From: an uncultured Dehalococcoidia bacterium | GTDB lineage: Bacteria > Chloroflexota > Dehalococcoidia > UBA6926 | Length of the DNA: 64,000 nucleotides | Reading direction: 5' to 3' | Assembly: GCA_964653005.1 (NCBI GenBank) | Contig: CAZZAN010000001.1 | Location: 237,898 to 301,897 of the forward strand | Shown here: piece after piece, positions 8,034 to 18,641 of the stretch | Layout: the number at the start of each line of letters is the position of its first letter | Position numbering within the stretch: the stretch's first letter is position 1 | Translations under genes and position numbers: made by a program | The notes under the pieces: generated by a model | The model's database searches: none | Told to the model about the DNA's origin: nothing | The model's input: only the letters and a program-made list of their open reading frames with translations

Positions 8034-8231
8034 GTGACGACGGTGGAAGAGCGCGTTAGTTTCATCGAGGGCAGACTGGACCAGTTCGCCACGAAGGCCG
8101 ACATAGCCGACGTGAGGACCGATCTTGCTGCTCTGGAATCGCGCTTGATCAAATGGATGGTAACCCTGCAATTGCTTGGGCTGGGCGCAATAGCAGCAAT
8201 CGTGGCCACAGCAGTCCAGCTACTGGGATAG
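8034..8231 (+). CDS. Hypothetical small protein with a C-terminal TM helix
   Basis: 65 aa: coiled-coil-like N-terminus plus a hydrophobic C-terminus. No recognised family; weak call. Confidence 0.3.
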   Translation: MTTVEERVSFIEGRLDQFATKADIADVRTDLAALESRLIKWMVTLQLLGLGAIAAIVATAVQLLG

Positions 8232-8364
8232 CGACGACATTTCACCACTTGGCGCAGACAGTAGAAATCAACCCTCCGGCTCGCGAATTGTCAGGGGATG
8301 GCCGCCCAACGGCGCGGCCCGTGACACTTGCGAATCGTGAAGGGACATGCGTATACTGCGCGTG

Positions 8365-8391
8365 TTAGCACTCTCCGCGTGAGAGTGCTAA
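8365..8391 (+). promoter_or_regulatory. CIRCE operator (HrcA binding site) upstream of groES
   Basis: TTAGCACTC-tccgcgtga-GAGTGCTAA is a perfect 9-N9-9 inverted repeat matching the CIRCE consensus, about 40 nt upstream of the groES start. Confidence 0.85.
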
Positions 8392-8431
8392 TTGTGCGAA
8401 AACAACGGTTACAGGAGGGATAGAGAGAGGT

Positions 8432-8725
8432 ATGGCGCGCACATTTCAGCCGCTAGGGGATCGAATTGTGATCAAGCCGATTGAGCAGGAGGAGGTCTCC
8501 AAGGGAGGTCTGGTCCTGCCGGACACGGCGCGGGAGCGTCCTCAGGAGGGCGAGGTCATTGCGGCCGGCCCGGGACGACTCACCGACGAGGGCAGCCGGA
8601 TACCGATGGAACTCGTCGTCGGTGACAAGGTTCTGTACGCGAAGTACGCGGGAACCGAGCTCAAGGAAGACGACGAGGACTACCTGGTGCTCCGGGAGTC
8701 CGACATCCTGGCGAAGATCAGCTAG
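8432..8725 (+). CDS. groES: Co-chaperonin GroES
   Basis: 97 aa. LGDRIVIKP...GGLVLPD...GEVIAAGPG...VGDKVLY. Confidence 0.95.
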
Positions 8726-10369
<1,644 letters not shown>

Positions 10370-10394: not shown

Positions 10395-10437
10395 AAGTCC
10401 CCCGCTCACCGTGCGGTGAGCGGGGGACTTCTTTTTT
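10395..10437 (+). terminator. Rho-independent terminator of the groESL operon
   Basis: aagtcccccgctcacc-gtgc-ggtgagcgggggactt forms a 16-bp perfect stem, followed by cTTTTTTg. Confidence 0.75.
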
Positions 10438-10492
10438 GCAGAGATTGGTTGTTTGGCCAAACCGCCTGTACCATCACTCAGGGGGTGAACTC

Positions 10493-11212
10493 ATGGGACA
10501 ACTTGATGGCAAGGTCTGCATCATAACCGGAGGGGGCAGGGGCATCGGAAAAGGGATTGCGCGCGCATTCGCCAAGGAAGGCGCGACGCTCGTCCTGGCT
10601 TCGCGGCAACTTGACACTCTCAATGAGACAGCCGAGGAGATGCGGGGCTATGGATCGCCAACCCTCGTGGTCCAGACGGATGTGACCAGCGAGGAGCAGA
10701 TCAAGAGCCTCTTTGAGACGACAATGGCGGAACACGGGCGAGTGGACATCCTGGTGAATAATTCCGGCGTGTTCGACGGCGGCCCCGTCGATGAACTCCC
10801 GTTGGAAACGTGGAATAAGGTCATCGCCATCAACCTCACCGCGGCTTTCATCTGCACGAGAGAGGCCATGAAGATCATGAAGCCGCAGGGCGGCGGACGG
10901 ATCATCAACATCGGCAGCATCTCGTCGAGTATCCCCAGGATGAACTCGGCCGCCTACGCAACCTCCAAGCACGGAATCATCGGCCTCACGAAGTCGACCG
11001 CGCTTGAGGGCAGGGACTTCGGCATCTCAGCGGGCGCGCTACACCCGGGAAGCGTCACCCTGGAGTGGCGCGGGCCTGAGGATCCGAACGCAACGATGTC
11101 GGTGGACGACATCGCCATCGGAGCATTGGCAATGGCGACGATGCCAGAGTATGCGACGATGCTTGACGCGACGGTTCTGCCCATCAGGCAGCCATTCCTG
11201 GGACGGGGGTAA
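10493..11212 (+). CDS. SDR-family oxidoreductase
   Basis: About 239 aa from ATG 10493 with a GGGGGTG RBS; the track's TTG start at 10436 lies inside the groEL terminator. ITGGGRGIGKG and YATSKHG motifs. Its last about 25 codons are duplicated at 14354-14430. Confidence 0.8.
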   Translation: MGQLDGKVCIITGGGRGIGKGIARAFAKEGATLVLASRQLDTLNETAEEMRGYGSPTLVVQTDVTSEEQIKSLFETTMAEHGRVDILVNNSGVFDGGPVDELPLETWNKVIAINLTAAFICTREAMKIMKPQGGGRIINIGSISSSIPRMNSAAYATSKHGIIGLTKSTALEGRDFGISAGALHPGSVTLEWRGPEDPNATMSVDDIAIGALAMATMPEYATMLDATVLPIRQPFLGRG

Positions 11213-11217
11213 CCCGG
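11141..11217 (+). repeat. Direct repeat, left copy (SDR 3' end, MPEYATMLDATVLPIRQPFLGRG*)
   Basis: 77 bp, with about 8 mismatches to 14354-14430. All mismatches fall at third codon positions and both copies encode the identical peptide. Confidence 0.85.
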
Positions 11218-11298: not shown

Positions 11299-12597
11299 AT
11301 GACAGCGGCCAAGCGGCCGAGGGTGGGTGCTATAGGATTGAGTTCCTCACAGCTGGATTCCATCAGGCCACTTTGCGGAATGCTTAGGCCAGCCGACTCA
11401 TTGGGCGATTATTGCGAGCTCTACAGTTGGACAGAAACGGACATCTTGGTAGCGTGTAATTTCGATTCTTGGGAGGATGAACCTTCCCCTCTTACCATCG
11501 ATCCTGATGTCAATATACTCGCCTTTAGTGAGTTTTATATCACATGGCCGGATAAGTACTCTACGAACAATTATGCTAACAATCACTACGCATCTACTAG
11601 CAGGAACACTGAGCGTGAACTGTCGGTTGCAGACGCTTGTCCGGATGTATATGAGCCACTTGCTGTTGATTTGATCAAGGAGTTAGCAAGAACTCAAAGC
11701 CTTCCTACAGTGATCGACACTTCCAGAAAGCGTTTTACATCGCTGGTTTCAACTACTTCAAACCAGCCTGTAGCCTTGTACATCGATTTGCCACCTCGAG
11801 CGGAGGGGCCTGACAGAGAACCAGTTCGAGCGTTCGCGCTCCTGCTCCCCAACGTTTCTAATCTCGCGGCCTGGTTCCGAGCCTTCCTTGCGGAGATTCA
11901 CGAAAGGAATCCTAGCCGGGTTCCACATGCCCCGCCTCGTTTGAGCAATCCATCAGATTGGTACACGCCTGAAGAAAGGGACCTAGCAGACCAAATCTCG
12001 GAAGTCAGCACGGAAATCACAGCCTTAACGGACAATCGTGACCGGCTTGAGGAACAACTGGCCATAAAGACGACAGAGGCCGACGCGGAGATTCGGAGCG
12101 CGCTCTGGGCCGACGGAGACGAACTGACCGCATCGGTCAAGGAGATTCTCTCCGGCCTAGGCTTTGTAGTCCGGGACATGGATACCGAATTGGATGAGGG
12201 GCAGCCTAAGCGCGAAGACTTGCGCCTGACACTTCCGGACAACTCTGCCTGGGAAGCCATTGTGGAAGTGAAGGGATATTCAGGCGGCACTAAGACGAGC
12301 GATGCCCGCCAAATTAGGGAGCACCGCGACCACTACACAGAGGAGAAAGGCCAGAAGCCTCATTTGACGTTGTGGCTGGCCAACGCACATCGCAACTATG
12401 CCCCTTCTGATAGACCTGCGCCGGATGGAAACGTCAAGGTGACCGCTGAGGTAGCCGGCATCGTTCACGCGCAAGTGCACGACCTACTTCGACAATGGTT
12501 GCTTGTTCAGGCGGGCAGTCTTGACGCAGCAATTGTCGTGAAAAGTCTGGTCGATGCCGAACCCGGACTCTGGACCCCACCAAAGCCTCCCGACTAG
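11299..12597 (+). CDS. Uncharacterised protein: unknown N-terminal domain, central coiled coil, C-terminal PD-x(n)-E-x-K nuclease-like motif
   Basis: 432 aa with a GGAGGGGG RBS. Shows a coiled-coil-like stretch (ERDLADQISEVSTEITALTDNRDRLEEQLAIKTTEADAEIRS), then LRLTLPDNSAWEAIVEVKGYSGGTK (PD...EVK). The gene is AT-shifted. Confidence 0.6.
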   Translation: MTAAKRPRVGAIGLSSSQLDSIRPLCGMLRPADSLGDYCELYSWTETDILVACNFDSWEDEPSPLTIDPDVNILAFSEFYITWPDKYSTNNYANNHYASTSRNTERELSVADACPDVYEPLAVDLIKELARTQSLPTVIDTSRKRFTSLVSTTSNQPVALYIDLPPRAEGPDREPVRAFALLLPNVSNLAAWFRAFLAEIHERNPSRVPHAPPRLSNPSDWYTPEERDLADQISEVSTEITALTDNRDRLEEQLAIKTTEADAEIRSALWADGDELTASVKEILSGLGFVVRDMDTELDEGQPKREDLRLTLPDNSAWEAIVEVKGYSGGTKTSDARQIREHRDHYTEEKGQKPHLTLWLANAHRNYAPSDRPAPDGNVKVTAEVAGIVHAQVHDLLRQWLLVQAGSLDAAIVVKSLVDAEPGLWTPPKPPD

Positions 12598-12818: not shown

Positions 12819-14303
12819 ATGAAGAGGGCGCTGTGGATAATCCTGATCCTTATTTTGACGCTGGTTGGTCTATGCACCGCGCTGACCGTTGCCTTACCTG
12901 TCCCTGAAGAATCGAATTCGACCGCAGAGCCATCTGAACAGACTCCTCGCGTAGCTGCACAAGTCCTTCATGCAGGACGAGCGGTTAACATGGAGGACTT
13001 TGGCCCGGGCCGCAAATATCCAAGTATCCAGATTTACGGCGAGGTCTGTGATGTAAACGAGTCGAACGCGCCTGAGTACGTGGAAGTATCCTTGTATGGA
13101 ATCATAAAGAGTCGCTACTCAGATTGGTGCATCAAATCAGTGACTTTAGGTGGGGCTTCAGAACTGAGTTCGGGGCTCGAGAAGGGCGATGCATTCGAAG
13201 CAATCTGTACTGGCACGATTTCAGAAGTCTCGGTTCATTTGCTGGTCAGGGAATGCAGTGCATTACCCGAGACAGGCAGACGTGATTCACCCGCACGAGC
13301 GCCAGCCGTGCCGATTTCGTCATCAAGGCTGGCCGATGCGGATTCAACAGAATATCTAAACCCTGAGCGGGTGGTAGAAGAGGTACGGGATACCGTCGTG
13401 CATATAAAGTCTGATTTTGGTAACTGGCCCGGTGTCATTTATGCTACAGAGGGTGTATCCGCGTTCATAGTCACAAATGCTCGCGCTGTTCTACAAGATA
13501 GCCAACTGTACGACACCGTCGAAGTTATGACCTATGACGGCACGTCTTATGGTGGTGCATTAATGATCTGGGATCAGGGCACTGACATTGCCATTATCGG
13601 TATCTGCTGTGGAGAGTTCGAGCCACTTGTATTTGGTGATGCATCCACGCTCGAGATTGGAAGAGAGGTCATCGCCGTTGGTCATCAGGGTCTCACGGAC
13701 ACATCGCTGAAATCGGTGCAGGGTGCAGTTACAGCACATGCCTTGGTGAGCGATGGCACCATCAATGTAATCCGCACTGATGCAATTGTAATTCCACAAA
13801 ATGATGGTGGGCTACTAATATCCCCGTTTGGCAAATTTCTCGGCATCAATACACCGGCGCTTTTCCCTTCGGAGGGCCTAGGATTTGCCGTCACAGAGAA
13901 GGCCATAAGAGAGTTCATCGACGGGTTCAGAACGGGCAATATACGTGTCCCACCCCCATCACCTACGTCTACAGCAACTCCCTTGATTGATGTCTGGGAC
14001 CTTTATGGCGAACATAGCGCCAATGCGATGAGGTTCGAGCGAGATCGAGCAGGAAAACGTGCCCAAATATATGGCCTCGTCTGCAGAATCGACGATAGTG
14101 CTCTTTATTTGTACGCGGATTCAGACAGCCTTCTTGTCGAATCTTGCGCTCATAGGGCGGTTGTCGTAGTTGGTTTAGCCGAAAACTTGTTACTGGAGTT
14201 ATCAGCCGGGGATACGTTTGTGGCGACTTGCCACGTGGCTGGATTTATAGATCAATCTGGTCTGCTTACAGACCATATGTATGTGGCGGGCTGCACCTCC
14301 TAG
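12819..14303 (+). CDS. Membrane-anchored trypsin-fold (HtrA/S1-like) protein whose catalytic His and Ser appear substituted (probable pseudo-protease), flanked by two homologous small domains
   Basis: 494 aa with an N-terminal TM (MKRALWIILILILTLVGLCTALTVAL). S1 motifs are present but altered: TNARAV where TN(A/N)HVV is expected, DIAIIGI, GREVIAVGHQG, IRTDAIVIPQNDGGLL where GNSGGPL is expected, GKFLGINT, GLGFAV. An N-terminal segment (QIYGEVCDVNES...GDAFEAICTG...HLLVRECS) and a C-terminal segment (QIYGLVCRIDDS...GDTFVATCHV...HMYVAGCTS) are visibly related to each other. Confidence 0.6.
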   Translation: MKRALWIILILILTLVGLCTALTVALPVPEESNSTAEPSEQTPRVAAQVLHAGRAVNMEDFGPGRKYPSIQIYGEVCDVNESNAPEYVEVSLYGIIKSRYSDWCIKSVTLGGASELSSGLEKGDAFEAICTGTISEVSVHLLVRECSALPETGRRDSPARAPAVPISSSRLADADSTEYLNPERVVEEVRDTVVHIKSDFGNWPGVIYATEGVSAFIVTNARAVLQDSQLYDTVEVMTYDGTSYGGALMIWDQGTDIAIIGICCGEFEPLVFGDASTLEIGREVIAVGHQGLTDTSLKSVQGAVTAHALVSDGTINVIRTDAIVIPQNDGGLLISPFGKFLGINTPALFPSEGLGFAVTEKAIREFIDGFRTGNIRVPPPSPTSTATPLIDVWDLYGEHSANAMRFERDRAGKRAQIYGLVCRIDDSALYLYADSDSLLVESCAHRAVVVVGLAENLLLELSAGDTFVATCHVAGFIDQSGLLTDHMYVAGCTS

Positions 14304-14353
14304 ACGATACTTTCAGCCTGGACGATGTATGGCGCTGAGATTCTAGGGCTGTG

Positions 14354-14430
14354 ATGCCGGAGTACGCCACCATGCTTGATGCGACGGTTCTGCCCATCAG
14401 GCAGCCGTTCCTGGGGCGCGGTTAACCCGG
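14354..14430 (+). repeat. Direct repeat, right copy (orphan SDR 3' end)
   Basis: It encodes the same 23-aa peptide plus stop as 11141-11217, with synonymous-only differences. It is not attached to any upstream reading frame. Confidence 0.85.
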
Positions 14431-14432
14431 GG

Positions 14433-15455
14433 TCACGCCGTCATTCTGAGGCTTGGGACGGCGTCAAGTCCTCCGTCATCGGGCTGAGCGCCGTGTTCAA
14501 TGACGAACGCGGCGCGGGCGGCGATCATGACACCGTTGTCCGTGCAGAGTCCGGGGCGAGGCCGCCATACGGGCATGTCCGCCTTGCGCAGGACCTCCTC
14601 GCCGAGGGCGCTGTTTGCCGCGACGCCGCCGGACAACATGACCGACTTCGCTTTCGTAGCACGCGCGACCTCCAACAGGCGGTCCGCCAGGCCCGTGACA
14701 GCGGTCTGCTGAAAGCCTGCGGCGATATTGGCGACGTCTTCCTGGGTCAGCGCGTCCGTCCCGCCTCGTTCGTTCACCACGCGGAGCACTGCCGTCTTGA
14801 GGCCGCTGAAACTGAAATCCCATGAGTCCCTGATCAGCGGGCTGGGAAAGCGGACAGGGTCGGTCGCCTCACGAGCGACGCGTTCGATGATCGGGCCACC
14901 CGGGTAGCCGAGGCCAAGCAGCCGCGCCACCTTGTCGAACGCCTCACCCGCGGCATCGTCTCTCGTCTCGCTCAGCAGCCGGTAGTTCCCGTGCTCCTCC
15001 ACCCGCACGATGTCCGTATGGCCGCCGGAGACGATGAGCGCCACGGATGGCAGCAGCGGGTCGCCCCGCTCCTCACTGTCCCACTGCCCGTCCACGATCC
15101 AGTTCGCATAGACGTGTCCCTCAAGATGGTGAACACCGTACAGCGGCAGGTCCCACGCCATCGCGAGCGCCTTGGCGAAATTGACACCCACCAATAGGGA
15201 GCCTGCCAGTCCCGGGCCGTACGTCACGGCGATGGCGTCGAGATTGAGGTCTCCGTCATGTCGCTCCATGACGTCACGCAGGAGCGTGGGAAACGTCAGC
15301 AGGTGTTGGCGTGACGCGATCTCCGGAACCACACCGCCGAATCGCGCATGGATATCCGCCTGCGATGACAGGCCATGGACGATGACCCGACGCCCGTCCT
15401 CAACGATGGCGATGCCCGTCTCATCGCAAGATGATTCGATACCAAGAATTCTCAT
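14433..15455 (-). CDS. tsaD: tRNA N6-adenosine threonylcarbamoyltransferase TsaD (Kae1/Gcp)
   Basis: 340 aa. MRILGIESSCDETGIAIV...HHLEGH... Confidence 0.9.
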   Translation of the reverse strand: MRILGIESSCDETGIAIVEDGRRVIVHGLSSQADIHARFGGVVPEIASRQHLLTFPTLLRDVMERHDGDLNLDAIAVTYGPGLAGSLLVGVNFAKALAMAWDLPLYGVHHLEGHVYANWIVDGQWDSEERGDPLLPSVALIVSGGHTDIVRVEEHGNYRLLSETRDDAAGEAFDKVARLLGLGYPGGPIIERVAREATDPVRFPSPLIRDSWDFSFSGLKTAVLRVVNERGGTDALTQEDVANIAAGFQQTAVTGLADRLLEVARATKAKSVMLSGGVAANSALGEEVLRKADMPVWRPRPGLCTDNGVMIAARAAFVIEHGAQPDDGGLDAVPSLRMTA

Positions 15456-16288: not shown

Positions 16289-17551
16289 ATGCAGGAGGTC
16301 GAGACCATTAGCCTGGCGCTATTGGGGCTCTCCTTTCTCTTTTCGGCAATCTTCTCAGGCACGGAGGCGGCTTTCCTTGCGTCTCAACCGCATCGCCTGA
16401 GGCACCGCGCCGAGAACGGTTCGCGAGGGGCGCGCATCGCGGAGGGGATGAAGGAAAGGCCGGAGCGATTCCTTTCAACGCTCCTGGTCGGCAACAACCT
16501 CACCAACACGGCCGCCGCGGCCATCGCAACCAGCATCGCCCTGACACTGCTTGAGAACTCGGAGCAGGGGCTCGTTGCCGCGACGGTCATTACAACGATT
16601 GCCCTGCTCATCTTCGCGGAAATCACGCCAAAGACGGTGGGCGCGCGTCATGCGGAGCGCGTCATGATTTTCCTTGCGCCGCCTTTCCGTGTTTTCTCAT
16701 TCGTTTTCGCACCCGTAACGATTGCCTTCACGACATTCGCGGGCTTCGTTGCATGGCTGACGGGCGGTACGCGCCGCGCAATGGTGGACGCGCAGGAGTT
16801 CCGCGCAATGATCAGGACCGGCGTGGAACAGGGAACCGTGGAGGAGCGGGAGGCGGAGCTTGTCCACAAGGTGTTCCAGTTCGGCGACCGTATGGTCCGG
16901 GAAATCATGACGCCGCGCACGGAGATCATCTGGGTGCGCAACGGAACAACGCTCTCGGAGTTTCTTGAAATCTACGCCCGTCATTCCCACTCACACTTCC
17001 CTGTTCTGGGGGATGAGCCGGATACCGTGGCGGGCATCCTCGCCATCAAGAGCGTCCTCCACAAGCACGCCCTCGGTGAACTCACGATGAACAGCTCCAT
17101 CACCACGGACCTGCGTGAGACACACTTCGTTCCGGAGACCAAGATGATCGACGACCTCATGGATGAGATGAGGGCGCAGCGGTCGCGCATGGTGATGGTC
17201 GTCGACGAGTTTGGCGACATCTCCGGTCTTGTGACGCTTAGCCGCGCCATCGAACTCATCGTCGGACGTGTCGATGATCCCGGCGACCCGCAAGCGTTCC
17301 AGGCGGTGGATGAGCGCACCGTGCGCGTGGACGGCATCATGCACATCGACGAACTGGCCGAGCAGTTGAACATCCACCTGCCGGACGGCGACGGCGAGTA
17401 TGAGACCATCGCCGGGTTCGTGCTCAAGCAGCTTGGACGGATTCCCGAGGAGGGAGAGGCCCTCGTGCACGGCCCTTACGAGATCACGGTGGCGCAGATC
17501 CACGGCGCGCGCATCGACGAGGTCACGGTACGCACGGAGGACACGGGGTGA
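16289..17551 (+). CDS. CNNM/CorC-HlyC family membrane protein (DUF21-CBS pair-CorC_HlyC)
   Basis: 420 aa. N-terminal TM domain, then CBS pair (VREIMTPRTEI...), then the C-terminal transporter-associated domain. Confidence 0.85.
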   Translation: MQEVETISLALLGLSFLFSAIFSGTEAAFLASQPHRLRHRAENGSRGARIAEGMKERPERFLSTLLVGNNLTNTAAAAIATSIALTLLENSEQGLVAATVITTIALLIFAEITPKTVGARHAERVMIFLAPPFRVFSFVFAPVTIAFTTFAGFVAWLTGGTRRAMVDAQEFRAMIRTGVEQGTVEEREAELVHKVFQFGDRMVREIMTPRTEIIWVRNGTTLSEFLEIYARHSHSHFPVLGDEPDTVAGILAIKSVLHKHALGELTMNSSITTDLRETHFVPETKMIDDLMDEMRAQRSRMVMVVDEFGDISGLVTLSRAIELIVGRVDDPGDPQAFQAVDERTVRVDGIMHIDELAEQLNIHLPDGDGEYETIAGFVLKQLGRIPEEGEALVHGPYEITVAQIHGARIDEVTVRTEDTG

Positions 17552-17582
17552 CGGAAGTAATGAAATTTCTTGGAGGGATTGG

Positions 17583-18641
17583 GTGGAAGACATCAAGCTA
17601 TGGGAACTAGCCGTAACTGAGGCCAAGCCTTTGGGTTCGAATAAGAAGTGGGAGTCCGAGAAGTCATTTGAAGATACTCTCGTCGAGAACCCGGAACTGC
17701 TGCTCGACGGCCTGACACTGGTGGGGCGGCAGACTCCAACCGAAGGCGGACGAGCGCTTGATCTGCTAGGTGTAGATTCGTACGGCAAGCTGGTCGTGTT
17801 CGAGTTGAAGCGCGATACGCTGTCGCGTGAGGCCGTCGCGCAAATCATCGATTACGCATCCTTTCTCGACAATCTGGATCTCAATGCCCTGGCCGAGCAC
17901 ATTTCGGAAAAGTCAGGCGCTCACGGAATTGCTAAAATCGATAACTTTCAAGAGTGGTACAGCAGCGAGGGTTTTGGCGAATTGGAGTCGTTGAAGCCGT
18001 TGCGGATGTTCCTGGTCGGTCTCGGAGCAGATGACCGCACGGAGCGCATGGTAAGGTTCCTCGCCCAGAACAGCGGGATGGATATCTCGATGCTGACCTT
18101 TCACGCGTTCGACTACGACGGCAAGACTATCCTTGCCAAGCAAGTGGAGGTGGAAGCAGACGCCGAACCCGAGCGGCGCTCCACAAGGCGACGTCCGTCT
18201 CAGGAGGAGTTCAACCAGCGTTTCGATGAGAAAAGGGCAGACTTTGGAGTCGGTAATCTCATCGATGACGTTCGCCGCATGTTCAGAGAGAATTGGCCAT
18301 CATCGACAGAACGCGCAGACACCTGGGGCATCAATTTCCAACTTCAGCCAAATCGTAGGCGCTATGCACGCTATGCGCGCATTGATCCCTGGCGAAAGGA
18401 AACAATAAGCATCGTATTCTTTGACCGCGCCAAGACATTGTGCCCGGATGAGTTCAGAGGACCCTTAGAGAAGATTAGCTATGTAACGTATCCGCGAAAT
18501 CGCGACCCGCTGGGAGACCCTAAGGCAGAGATTCAGTTCCACCTGACCCCGCAGGAGTGGGAAACCCACAAAGAGAGCTTGACCGCTCTCGCGCAAGCCG
18601 TCTACGCAGCATGGCAGAATAATGGGGCGGAATCGGACTAA
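17583..18641 (+). CDS. NucS/DUF91-like PD-(D/E)xK nuclease-domain protein
   Basis: About 352 aa from GTG 17583, with a GGAGGG RBS 5 nt upstream. LVGRQTPTEGGRALDLLGVDSYGKLVVFELKR matches the NucS-C/DUF91 core (GR..DLL..D..G.LVV.ELKR). GC is moderately below the neighbours. The track's start at 17400 overlaps corC. Confidence 0.6.
   Translation: MEDIKLWELAVTEAKPLGSNKKWESEKSFEDTLVENPELLLDGLTLVGRQTPTEGGRALDLLGVDSYGKLVVFELKRDTLSREAVAQIIDYASFLDNLDLNALAEHISEKSGAHGIAKIDNFQEWYSSEGFGELESLKPLRMFLVGLGADDRTERMVRFLAQNSGMDISMLTFHAFDYDGKTILAKQVEVEADAEPERRSTRRRPSQEEFNQRFDEKRADFGVGNLIDDVRRMFRENWPSSTERADTWGINFQLQPNRRRYARYARIDPWRKETISIVFFDRAKTLCPDEFRGPLEKISYVTYPRNRDPLGDPKAEIQFHLTPQEWETHKESLTALAQAVYAAWQNNGAESD

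Follow-up and report, generated by a model that had tools for sequence, protein, structure and literature searches.

When a gene keeps the recognizable motifs of an HtrA-type serine protease, but carries other residues at positions where catalytic ones are expected, does its product remain an enzyme, has it been retained for a non-catalytic purpose, or is it a relic? We addressed this question for gene B, which lies in a 64,000-nucleotide (nt) stretch of DNA from an uncultured Dehalococcoidia bacterium (GenBank assembly GCA_964653005.1, contig CAZZAN010000001.1, positions 237,898 to 301,897 of the forward strand), referred to here as the window; coordinates are those of the window unless another locus is named. 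A first-pass annotation, made from the DNA letters alone, had described the gene B product as a membrane-anchored S1/HtrA-fold protein with His to Arg and Ser to Asp substitutions, flanked on both sides by copies of a further domain (X), and had suggested that it is a pseudo-protease or scaffold. Here, we find that the HtrA fold is preserved in gene B and that its catalytic machinery is dismantled. The features of the gene are the following (aa, amino acids):

12819..14303 (+): gene B, uninterrupted from ATG to TAG, 494 codons (494 aa)
12828..12896 (+): signal-anchor/transmembrane helix, approximately aa 4-26, after MKR; read directly from the sequence
12951..13268 (+): X(N), tRNA_anti-like OB-fold domain, aa 45-150, the more diverged copy
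13368..13943 (+): degenerate S1/HtrA-fold protease domain, aa 184-375, in which the subfamily motif ICCGxF is kept (C263-C264)
13482..13484 (+): codon CGC, R222, at the position of the catalytic His
13584..13586 (+): codon GAC, D256, at the position of the catalytic Asp, retained
13797..13805 (+): codons of Q327-N328-D329, with Gln in place of the oxyanion-hole Gly (chymotrypsin 193) and Asp in place of the nucleophile Ser (195)
13971..14300 (+): X(C), tRNA_anti-like OB-fold domain, aa 385-494, the more canonical copy

The protease fold is preserved

The Pfam family Trypsin_2 (PF13365) matched aa 205-343 of gene B with 42.6 bits, against a cutoff of 27.6 (E 1.3e-10), and NCBIfam models for HtrA, DegP, DegQ, DegS and HhoA matched aa 200-370 with E values ranging from 1e-19 to 1e-9, although the best NCBIfam score, 68 bits, does not reach the equivalog cutoffs of these families (408-800). 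No PDZ family was matched in the Pfam scan of gene B at E values up to 1. An AlphaFold2 (AF2) model of the full-length protein, built on 72 relatives, showed a predicted local distance difference test score (pLDDT) of ~95 over aa 180-375, and comparison of the protease domain with HtrA1, DegS and DegQ in Foldseek gave E values of ~1e-14 and target-normalised template-modelling (TM) scores of 0.78-0.88; model and comparison both point to the two-β-barrel chymotrypsin fold. The S1/HtrA-like fold initially proposed is thus borne out by the Trypsin_2 match, the pLDDT of ~95 and TM scores of up to 0.88, and the motifs on which it was recognized (DIAIIGI, GREVIAVGH, GKFLGINT, GLGFAV, TNARAV and PQNDGG) are all found in the 494-aa open reading frame (ORF).

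The active site is dismantled

Alignment with T. maritima HtrA (1l1j), DegQ and HhoA using phmmer places TNAR of gene B on TNYH, DIAII on DIAVI and PQNDGG on PGNSGG. When 1.84 billion cluster representatives were scanned exhaustively with HMMER, no match other than gene B itself exceeded 203 bits; the top matches are 33-41% identical to gene B (aa 184-388), and the 149 best were aligned with it using MAFFT. In the resulting 150-sequence alignment, the His column holds 143 His, four gaps, one Glu, one Asp and a single Arg, that of gene B, while Asp is present in 148 sequences at the second catalytic position (with Pro in the other two) and Ser in 148 at the third, where gene B carries Asp and one further sequence Ala. 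Where the MEROPS S1C family is characterized by a His-Asp-Ser triad, gene B therefore presents R222, D256 and D329. Retention of only the Asp of the triad, as claimed in the first-pass annotation, is confirmed by both alignments.

The loss in fact exceeds that claim. The GNSGGP loop of the oxyanion hole is absent from gene B, which reads PQNDGGL (G327Q, S329D, P332L) and carries N325I and Q319R further upstream; Q319R, N325I, G327Q and P332L are all located at columns around the nucleophile that are at least 97% conserved, so that, besides the change of the oxyanion Gly to Gln, three additional conserved positions of the Ser loop are modified. No His or Ser that could act as a shifted substitute is present within a few residues of either motif. 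A shifted triad is consequently ruled out, and the alignment to solved HtrAs, which had been proposed as a check, revealed no intact triad at displaced positions. We infer that peptide-bond hydrolysis by the gene B protein is impossible.

Among the 39 columns with at least 90% conservation, gene B deviates at 12, as compared to a family median of one, and seven of these deviations affect the His motif or the Ser loop. On average, gene B is 37% identical to the family (family median, 51%), the fourth lowest value of the 150 sequences; the two lowest values are those of P0136 and P0253, which are likewise degenerate. The I-C-C-G-x-F hallmark is kept, with C263 and C264 (present in 137 and 138 of the 150 sequences, respectively) and F267 (137 of 150), as are structural glycines. 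Both this motif, which follows the catalytic Asp strand, and the best matches of gene B place it inside an uncharacterised clade of PDZ-less Trypsin_2 proteins, defined here from the 150 best hits and referred to as the ICCGxF (or ICCG) clade.

The N-terminal anchor and the two flanking domains

Following MKR, gene B carries ~23 hydrophobic residues, and the AF2 model displays a helix at aa 2-20 with a pLDDT of ~80. This N-terminus is homologous to that of P0135 (ALVGLCT, of which LVGLCT is shared). The single transmembrane anchor of the first-pass annotation thus holds insofar as there is one N-terminal hydrophobic helix, whose anchoring role is deduced from its sequence. The MKR and hydrophobic N-terminus, together with the many paired Cys residues, would correspond to an N-in signal anchor, with the rest of the protein located outside the cytoplasmic membrane.

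The segments flanking the protease domain had also been described as homologous to each other, and this is upheld. BLASTP of aa 45-165 against aa 385-494 yielded an E value of 2e-6, with 29% identity over 105 columns and four Cys residues in register, and both segments match the same domain in P0134 and P0135. Judged from these alignments, the homology between the two flanks is more than chance. In phmmer searches, X(C) matched P0134 (E 1e-18, 61 bits), P0135 (6e-14) and P0182 (2e-7), while X(N) matched P0134 (2.5e-7) and P0135 (9e-7); because its matches to the X domains of relatives are stronger, we consider X(C) as the more canonical copy and X(N) as the more diverged one. The X domains of gene B, P0134 and P0135 have four conserved Cys positions in common, of which P0182 shares two. 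These residues, as well as the CC pair of the protease domain, suggest disulfide-stabilised extracytoplasmic domains.

The isolated X copies of gene B gave no match in a Pfam scan at E values up to 10. The X domains of its relatives match the tRNA_anti-like family (PF12869), with 18.9 bits for P0182 (E 0.0012) and 15.7 bits for P0135 (E 0.012), both at the same model positions (48-84) and both below the gathering score of 23.5. In the full-length AF2 model, the X domains display low pLDDT values, X(N) following the order β1-β2-β3-α-β4-β5. A separate AF2 prediction of X(C), calculated from a 5-sequence alignment, reached a pLDDT of 81.9 and a predicted TM score of 0.77, and shows two N-terminal helices followed by β1-β2-β3-α-β4-β5. 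A search of PDB sequences with the X profile generated four weak matches only, including 3f1z (E 0.99), whose fold, a helical N-terminus followed by a five-stranded OB barrel, is matched by the model. Since the gene B copies have no Pfam score, membership of X in the tRNA_anti-like family is deduced from transitive homology and from the fold; on these grounds, X is predicted to be an OB fold of the tRNA_anti-like type and not a new fold. No match was obtained in a word-indexed search with the two-copy X alignment, nor in a JGI metagenome scan with an X-domain alignment.

Relatives of gene B

P0134, P0135 and P0182 are 33-38% identical to gene B and share much of its organization, with an N-terminal transmembrane helix, one X (OB) domain, a Pro/Thr linker and an HtrA-like protease domain carrying ICCGxFxP. 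Unlike gene B, all three keep His, Asp and Ser (HxD..GNSGG) as well as GNSGGP, and none has a second OB domain. At the C-terminal end, P0134 and P0135 carry an unrelated domain (motif GTGQDVR), while P0182 stops right after the protease domain. The X-protease arrangement is rare within the 150 best hits, and only in gene B is the protease domain followed by a second X. The X-protease-X architecture, presented initially as unlike any described family, is therefore new in part: X-protease on the same transmembrane anchor already exists in these three proteins, whereas the second, C-terminal X is unique to gene B. The first-pass annotation had also identified two observations that would speak against it, a triad intact at shifted positions and homologues that are standalone housekeeping proteases; the former was not found, while the nearest relatives are indeed ordinary, active-looking proteases.

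P0136 (860 aa) and P0253 (442 aa) represent a separate degenerate lineage of the ICCG clade, with two or three protease-like domains in tandem, in which neither the catalytic His nor the catalytic Asp is present; P0136 lacks Ser as well.

No orthologue of gene B was identified in any of the collections searched (1.84 billion representatives, 5.8 billion clusters and GTDB genomes). A word-indexed search with full-length gene B returned only itself and generic PDZ-bearing HtrAs, and scanning GTDB genomes with gene B revealed no relative of any kind. In PHROGs, the sole match of gene B was a generic protease-domain family without known function, and tblastn against phages produced only generic DegS/Do-like matches.

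Genomic context of gene B

Gene B is one of two genes of a small island located between an SDR gene and tsaD:

10436-11212: SDR gene, downstream of groES-groEL
11140..11217 (+): left 78-nt direct repeat, the SDR gene's own 3' end
11299..12597 (+): gene A, 432 aa, the other island gene, from a widespread uncharacterised family
14353..14430 (+): right 78-nt direct repeat, marking where the island ends on the right; an orphan piece of the SDR 3' end, with gene B on one side and tsaD on the other
14433-15455 (-): tsaD

The imperfect 78-nt direct repeat, whose copies are 88% identical, brackets 3.2 kb with low G+C content at third codon positions (GC3), and the right end of the island is found just 50 nt past gene B. 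GC3 is 0.56 in gene A and 0.49 in gene B, as compared to 0.74-0.82 in the neighbouring housekeeping genes, which indicates that both island genes are foreign. The island holds no integrase, tRNA or defence-model match. A defence-system reading was dropped, since PADLOC-DB returned no family for either gene A or gene B at E values up to 1.

The closest genome found is a Dehalococcoidia metagenome-assembled genome (MAG; loci L003/L008), whose SDR and tsaD flanks show 87% nucleotide identity to those of the window. The same slot of L003 carries a 72%-identical gene A, but gene B is replaced by unrelated cargo, namely a leucine-rich repeat (LRR) protein and others. Between the SDR gene and tsaD there is thus a variable hot spot, and gene B is a horizontally acquired, foreign singleton insertion in a Dehalococcoidia-like genome. 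Two of the L003 cargo proteins, of 502 and 299 aa, were considered as relatives of gene B and rejected as unrelated; the former (8621-10129 of L003, minus strand) contains at least 12 tandem 72-nt (24-aa) repeats of the leucine-rich type.

The family of gene A is well conserved and comprises proteins of ~430 aa; its more than 375 homologues, roughly 45-72% identical, are spread over several phyla, in Dehalococcoidia/Chloroflexota, Acidimicrobiales (including Ca. Poriferisodalis), Latescibacterota, Bryobacterales and one Gammaproteobacteria MAG. Many of the MAG names with gene A homologues look sponge-derived. Searches of Pfam, NCBIfam, PADLOC and PDB sequences, and tblastn against plasmids, provided no informative match for gene A. 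By eye, its invariant D295, E306-D307 and E323-x-K325, which follow a coiled-coil segment, resemble a PD-(D/E)xK-like nuclease motif. The idea that genes A and B always occur together did not survive inspection of 43 gene A loci (L008-L050) of Chloroflexota, Acidimicrobiales, Latescibacterota, Bryobacterales and others, none of which has a relative of gene B within 5 kb; gene B itself has no orthologue in the collections searched. P0134, for its part, is located in an ordinary chromosomal context on a 1.9-Mb contig, with no gene A nearby. The pairing is therefore incidental, and a two-gene A-B system was rejected on the basis of co-occurrence. Directly downstream of the P0134 protease gene, 2.2 kb are devoid of any called gene (8055-10304 of locus L006).

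Elsewhere in the window, positions 17583-18641 (+), inside the listed ORF 17400-18641, encode a 352-aa protein with a weak match to NucS_C (PD-(D/E)xK), which is conserved in L001/L002. Its GC3 of 0.64, as compared to 0.74-0.80 for its neighbours, suggests that it may be another acquired gene.

What could a dead HtrA-like protein do?

We lean, with moderate confidence, towards the interpretation that gene B encodes a dead, PDZ-less HtrA-like protein of the ICCGxF clade that has a non-catalytic role at the surface, in binding or scaffolding, or that partners an active paralogue. In established HtrA biology, the protease domains assemble into trimers, and the ability to bind unfolded polypeptides persists in inactive variants. 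The predicted architecture consists of an N-terminal signal-anchor helix and a degenerate chymotrypsin-fold domain that is preceded and followed by one copy each of the same OB fold. If functional, the protein would be located on the outer face of the membrane, probably as a trimer, as is normal for HtrA protease domains, and its empty substrate cleft and two OB domains per chain could be employed as a non-catalytic binder, holdase or scaffold. In this arrangement, the OB domains would take on the ligand-recognition role that is held elsewhere by PDZ domains. A putative D256-R222-D329 salt-bridge network would plausibly fill the former active site. By analogy with MamO, which acts on MamE, the gene B protein might also modulate an active paralogue. 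The ORF of 494 codons is intact despite a mean identity to the family of ~37%, which favors this interpretation. Of the two terms employed in the first-pass annotation, pseudo-protease is supported by the loss of the catalytic residues, while the scaffold role is one that we infer. A more elaborate scenario, in which the protein is a dead trimer that displays six tRNA_anti-like OB domains and has a salt-bridged Asp-Arg-Asp cluster in place of the catalytic centre, and in which a (probably sponge-associated) lineage of Dehalococcoidia took it up as an adhesin for a ligand or host, as a decoy or as an allosteric partner of an active ICCG-clade protease, is tentative, and as a whole we consider it doubtful.

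Several observations weigh against a retained function. Purifying selection cannot be shown, because no orthologue of gene B exists in any collection searched, and all observed copies of the gene are 100% identical in DNA. The 64-kb window holds no active HtrA paralogue that could act as a partner, and no convincing promoter was found upstream of gene B. Five of the 12 deviations (Y289H, G294D, T300V, S305T and L370F) affect neither the His motif nor the Ser loop, and such changes are as compatible with general relaxation as with repurposing. In addition, the tRNA_anti-like OB family that includes 3f1z is, to our knowledge, without an assigned function.

Alternative explanations

Gene B comes from a metagenome-assembled source and from one population only, and a chimeric contig or sequencing errors could in principle have generated its odd residues or its second X domain; this is almost certainly not the case. 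An identical gene B protein is encoded on four public contigs, and the locus with both flanks (5,020 nt) is 100% identical in the Logan assembly of SRR8304786, as are 2,659 nt of it in a second Logan assembly, that of SRR8304783; gene B is also present on a 458-kb NCBI contig. Identity at the DNA level in two independent assemblies shows that the locus is not a local assembly error. R222 is encoded by CGC and D329 by GAT, and since the change from Ser to Asp requires at least two nucleotide changes, D329 is not a single sequencing error; the numerous co-located substitutions are also unlike errors. It is very unlikely, as well, that the protein is still an enzyme that cleaves peptides or another substrate at a non-canonical site, with Asp329 acting for example as nucleophile or general acid together with Arg222, or with residues recruited from other parts of the fold. 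D256 and most of the S1-pocket scaffold (G330, G331, G338, G342) are retained, and a His occupies position 289, where the family has Tyr. Nevertheless, both motifs are devoid of a nearby His or Ser, the equivalent of Gly193 is Gln, and its neighbours N325, P332 and Q319 are changed. We know of no Arg/Asp catalytic pair in a chymotrypsin fold. MamO, whose changes are milder, is itself inactive (PMC4794232).

A more serious rival, although in our view a rather unlikely one, is that gene B is a relic, that is, a recently transferred protease gene that has lost its function and is drifting, has not yet acquired a stop codon or frameshift, and yields a protein with no role. It is a singleton among 1.84 billion representatives and 5.8 billion clusters, lies at the very edge of a variable low-GC3 island, and is absent from its syntenic relative; the change of 12 of 39 conserved columns, not all of them within the His motif and the Ser loop, and its long branch point in the same direction. 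X(C) resembles X(N) of its own chain less than it resembles the X at the N-terminus of P0134 (61 bits), and may have been left behind when the gene recombined with the 5' portion of another X-protease gene. Yet a frame of 494 codons at 51% GC and ~60% divergence would be very unlikely to survive without selection for the frame, and 27 of the 39 conserved positions, including fold-determining Gly, Cys and hydrophobic residues, are kept in a domain that models at a pLDDT of ~95. The X(C) junction, furthermore, is in frame and carries a Pro/Thr linker similar to those that precede X in relatives, and the four Cys positions are retained in both X copies.

Comparison with known pseudo-proteases

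MamO is an inactive HtrA-family pseudoprotease with a non-Gly residue at position 193, which activates MamE; in magnetotactic bacteria, such pseudoproteases, among them MamO and inactive duplicates of MamE, arose repeatedly within one family (PMC4794232). Like gene B, MamO has a membrane-associated HtrA fold, a triad that is degenerate, and a residue other than Gly at position 193 (Q327 in gene B). In MamO, however, His and Asp are kept and the nucleophile position carries Thr, and the protein has a di-His metal site on its surface as well as a TauE-like transporter domain at the C-terminus, neither of which characterizes gene B. MamO is located in the magnetosome island beside active MamE, whereas the neighbours of gene B are groESL, the SDR gene and tsaD. 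The MamO domain is retained for a non-catalytic role, and such a role is proposed for gene B. The NCBIfam model for MamO (NF040961) scored gene B with 23.3 bits against a cutoff of 800, and there was no TauE match; gene B is thus not a MamO orthologue.

In DEG7, a degenerate HtrA domain is kept for oligomerisation (PMC3194040), and gene B resembles plant DEG7 and yeast Nma111-type proteins, in which it is the second protease domain that has degenerated, in that a degenerate HtrA protease domain can serve as a structural or oligomerisation module (PMC3194040). DEG7 carries active and dead domains in a single chain, plus PDZ domains, whereas the only protease domain of gene B is dead and PDZ domains are absent; DEG7 is more closely resembled by P0136 and P0253, with their tandem dead domains, than by gene B. 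As compared to canonical HtrA, DegP, DegQ and DegS (MEROPS S1C), gene B has the same protease fold and the motifs around all three catalytic positions, but lacks PDZ domains, His and Ser, and has OB domains instead of PDZ. As for X, 3f1z (PF12869, annotated as 'putative nucleic acid-binding lipoprotein') is only 13% identical to it, and X carries four conserved Cys; tRNA_anti-like proteins are represented by a standalone lipoprotein, while in gene B the OB domain is fused to a protease domain.

Pseudo-proteases on an HtrA scaffold are therefore already known and arise repeatedly, even within the ICCG clade (P0136, P0253), and gene B is a one-off variant of this documented kind and not a new type of system. 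What is new is its set of substitutions (Arg, Gln and Asp), the presence of duplicated tRNA_anti-like OB domains on either side of a dead domain, and the pairing of OB folds with a protease domain in the PDZ-less ICCG clade. Its practical value is limited, since gene B is a singleton from an uncultured organism, its function has no support from conservation, and pseudo-proteases of the family have already been documented. If made and folded, its product would be a bacterial HtrA-fold pseudoenzyme whose catalytic dyad has been replaced by an unusual pair of charged residues (His to Arg, Ser to Asp). Should the more elaborate scenario outlined above be true, OB-(pseudo)protease-OB would represent a new accessory-domain solution in place of the PDZ domains of HtrA proteins. 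The pairing of OB folds with a protease domain offers a testable handle on the clade as a whole: does the OB domain recognise substrate, as PDZ does elsewhere?

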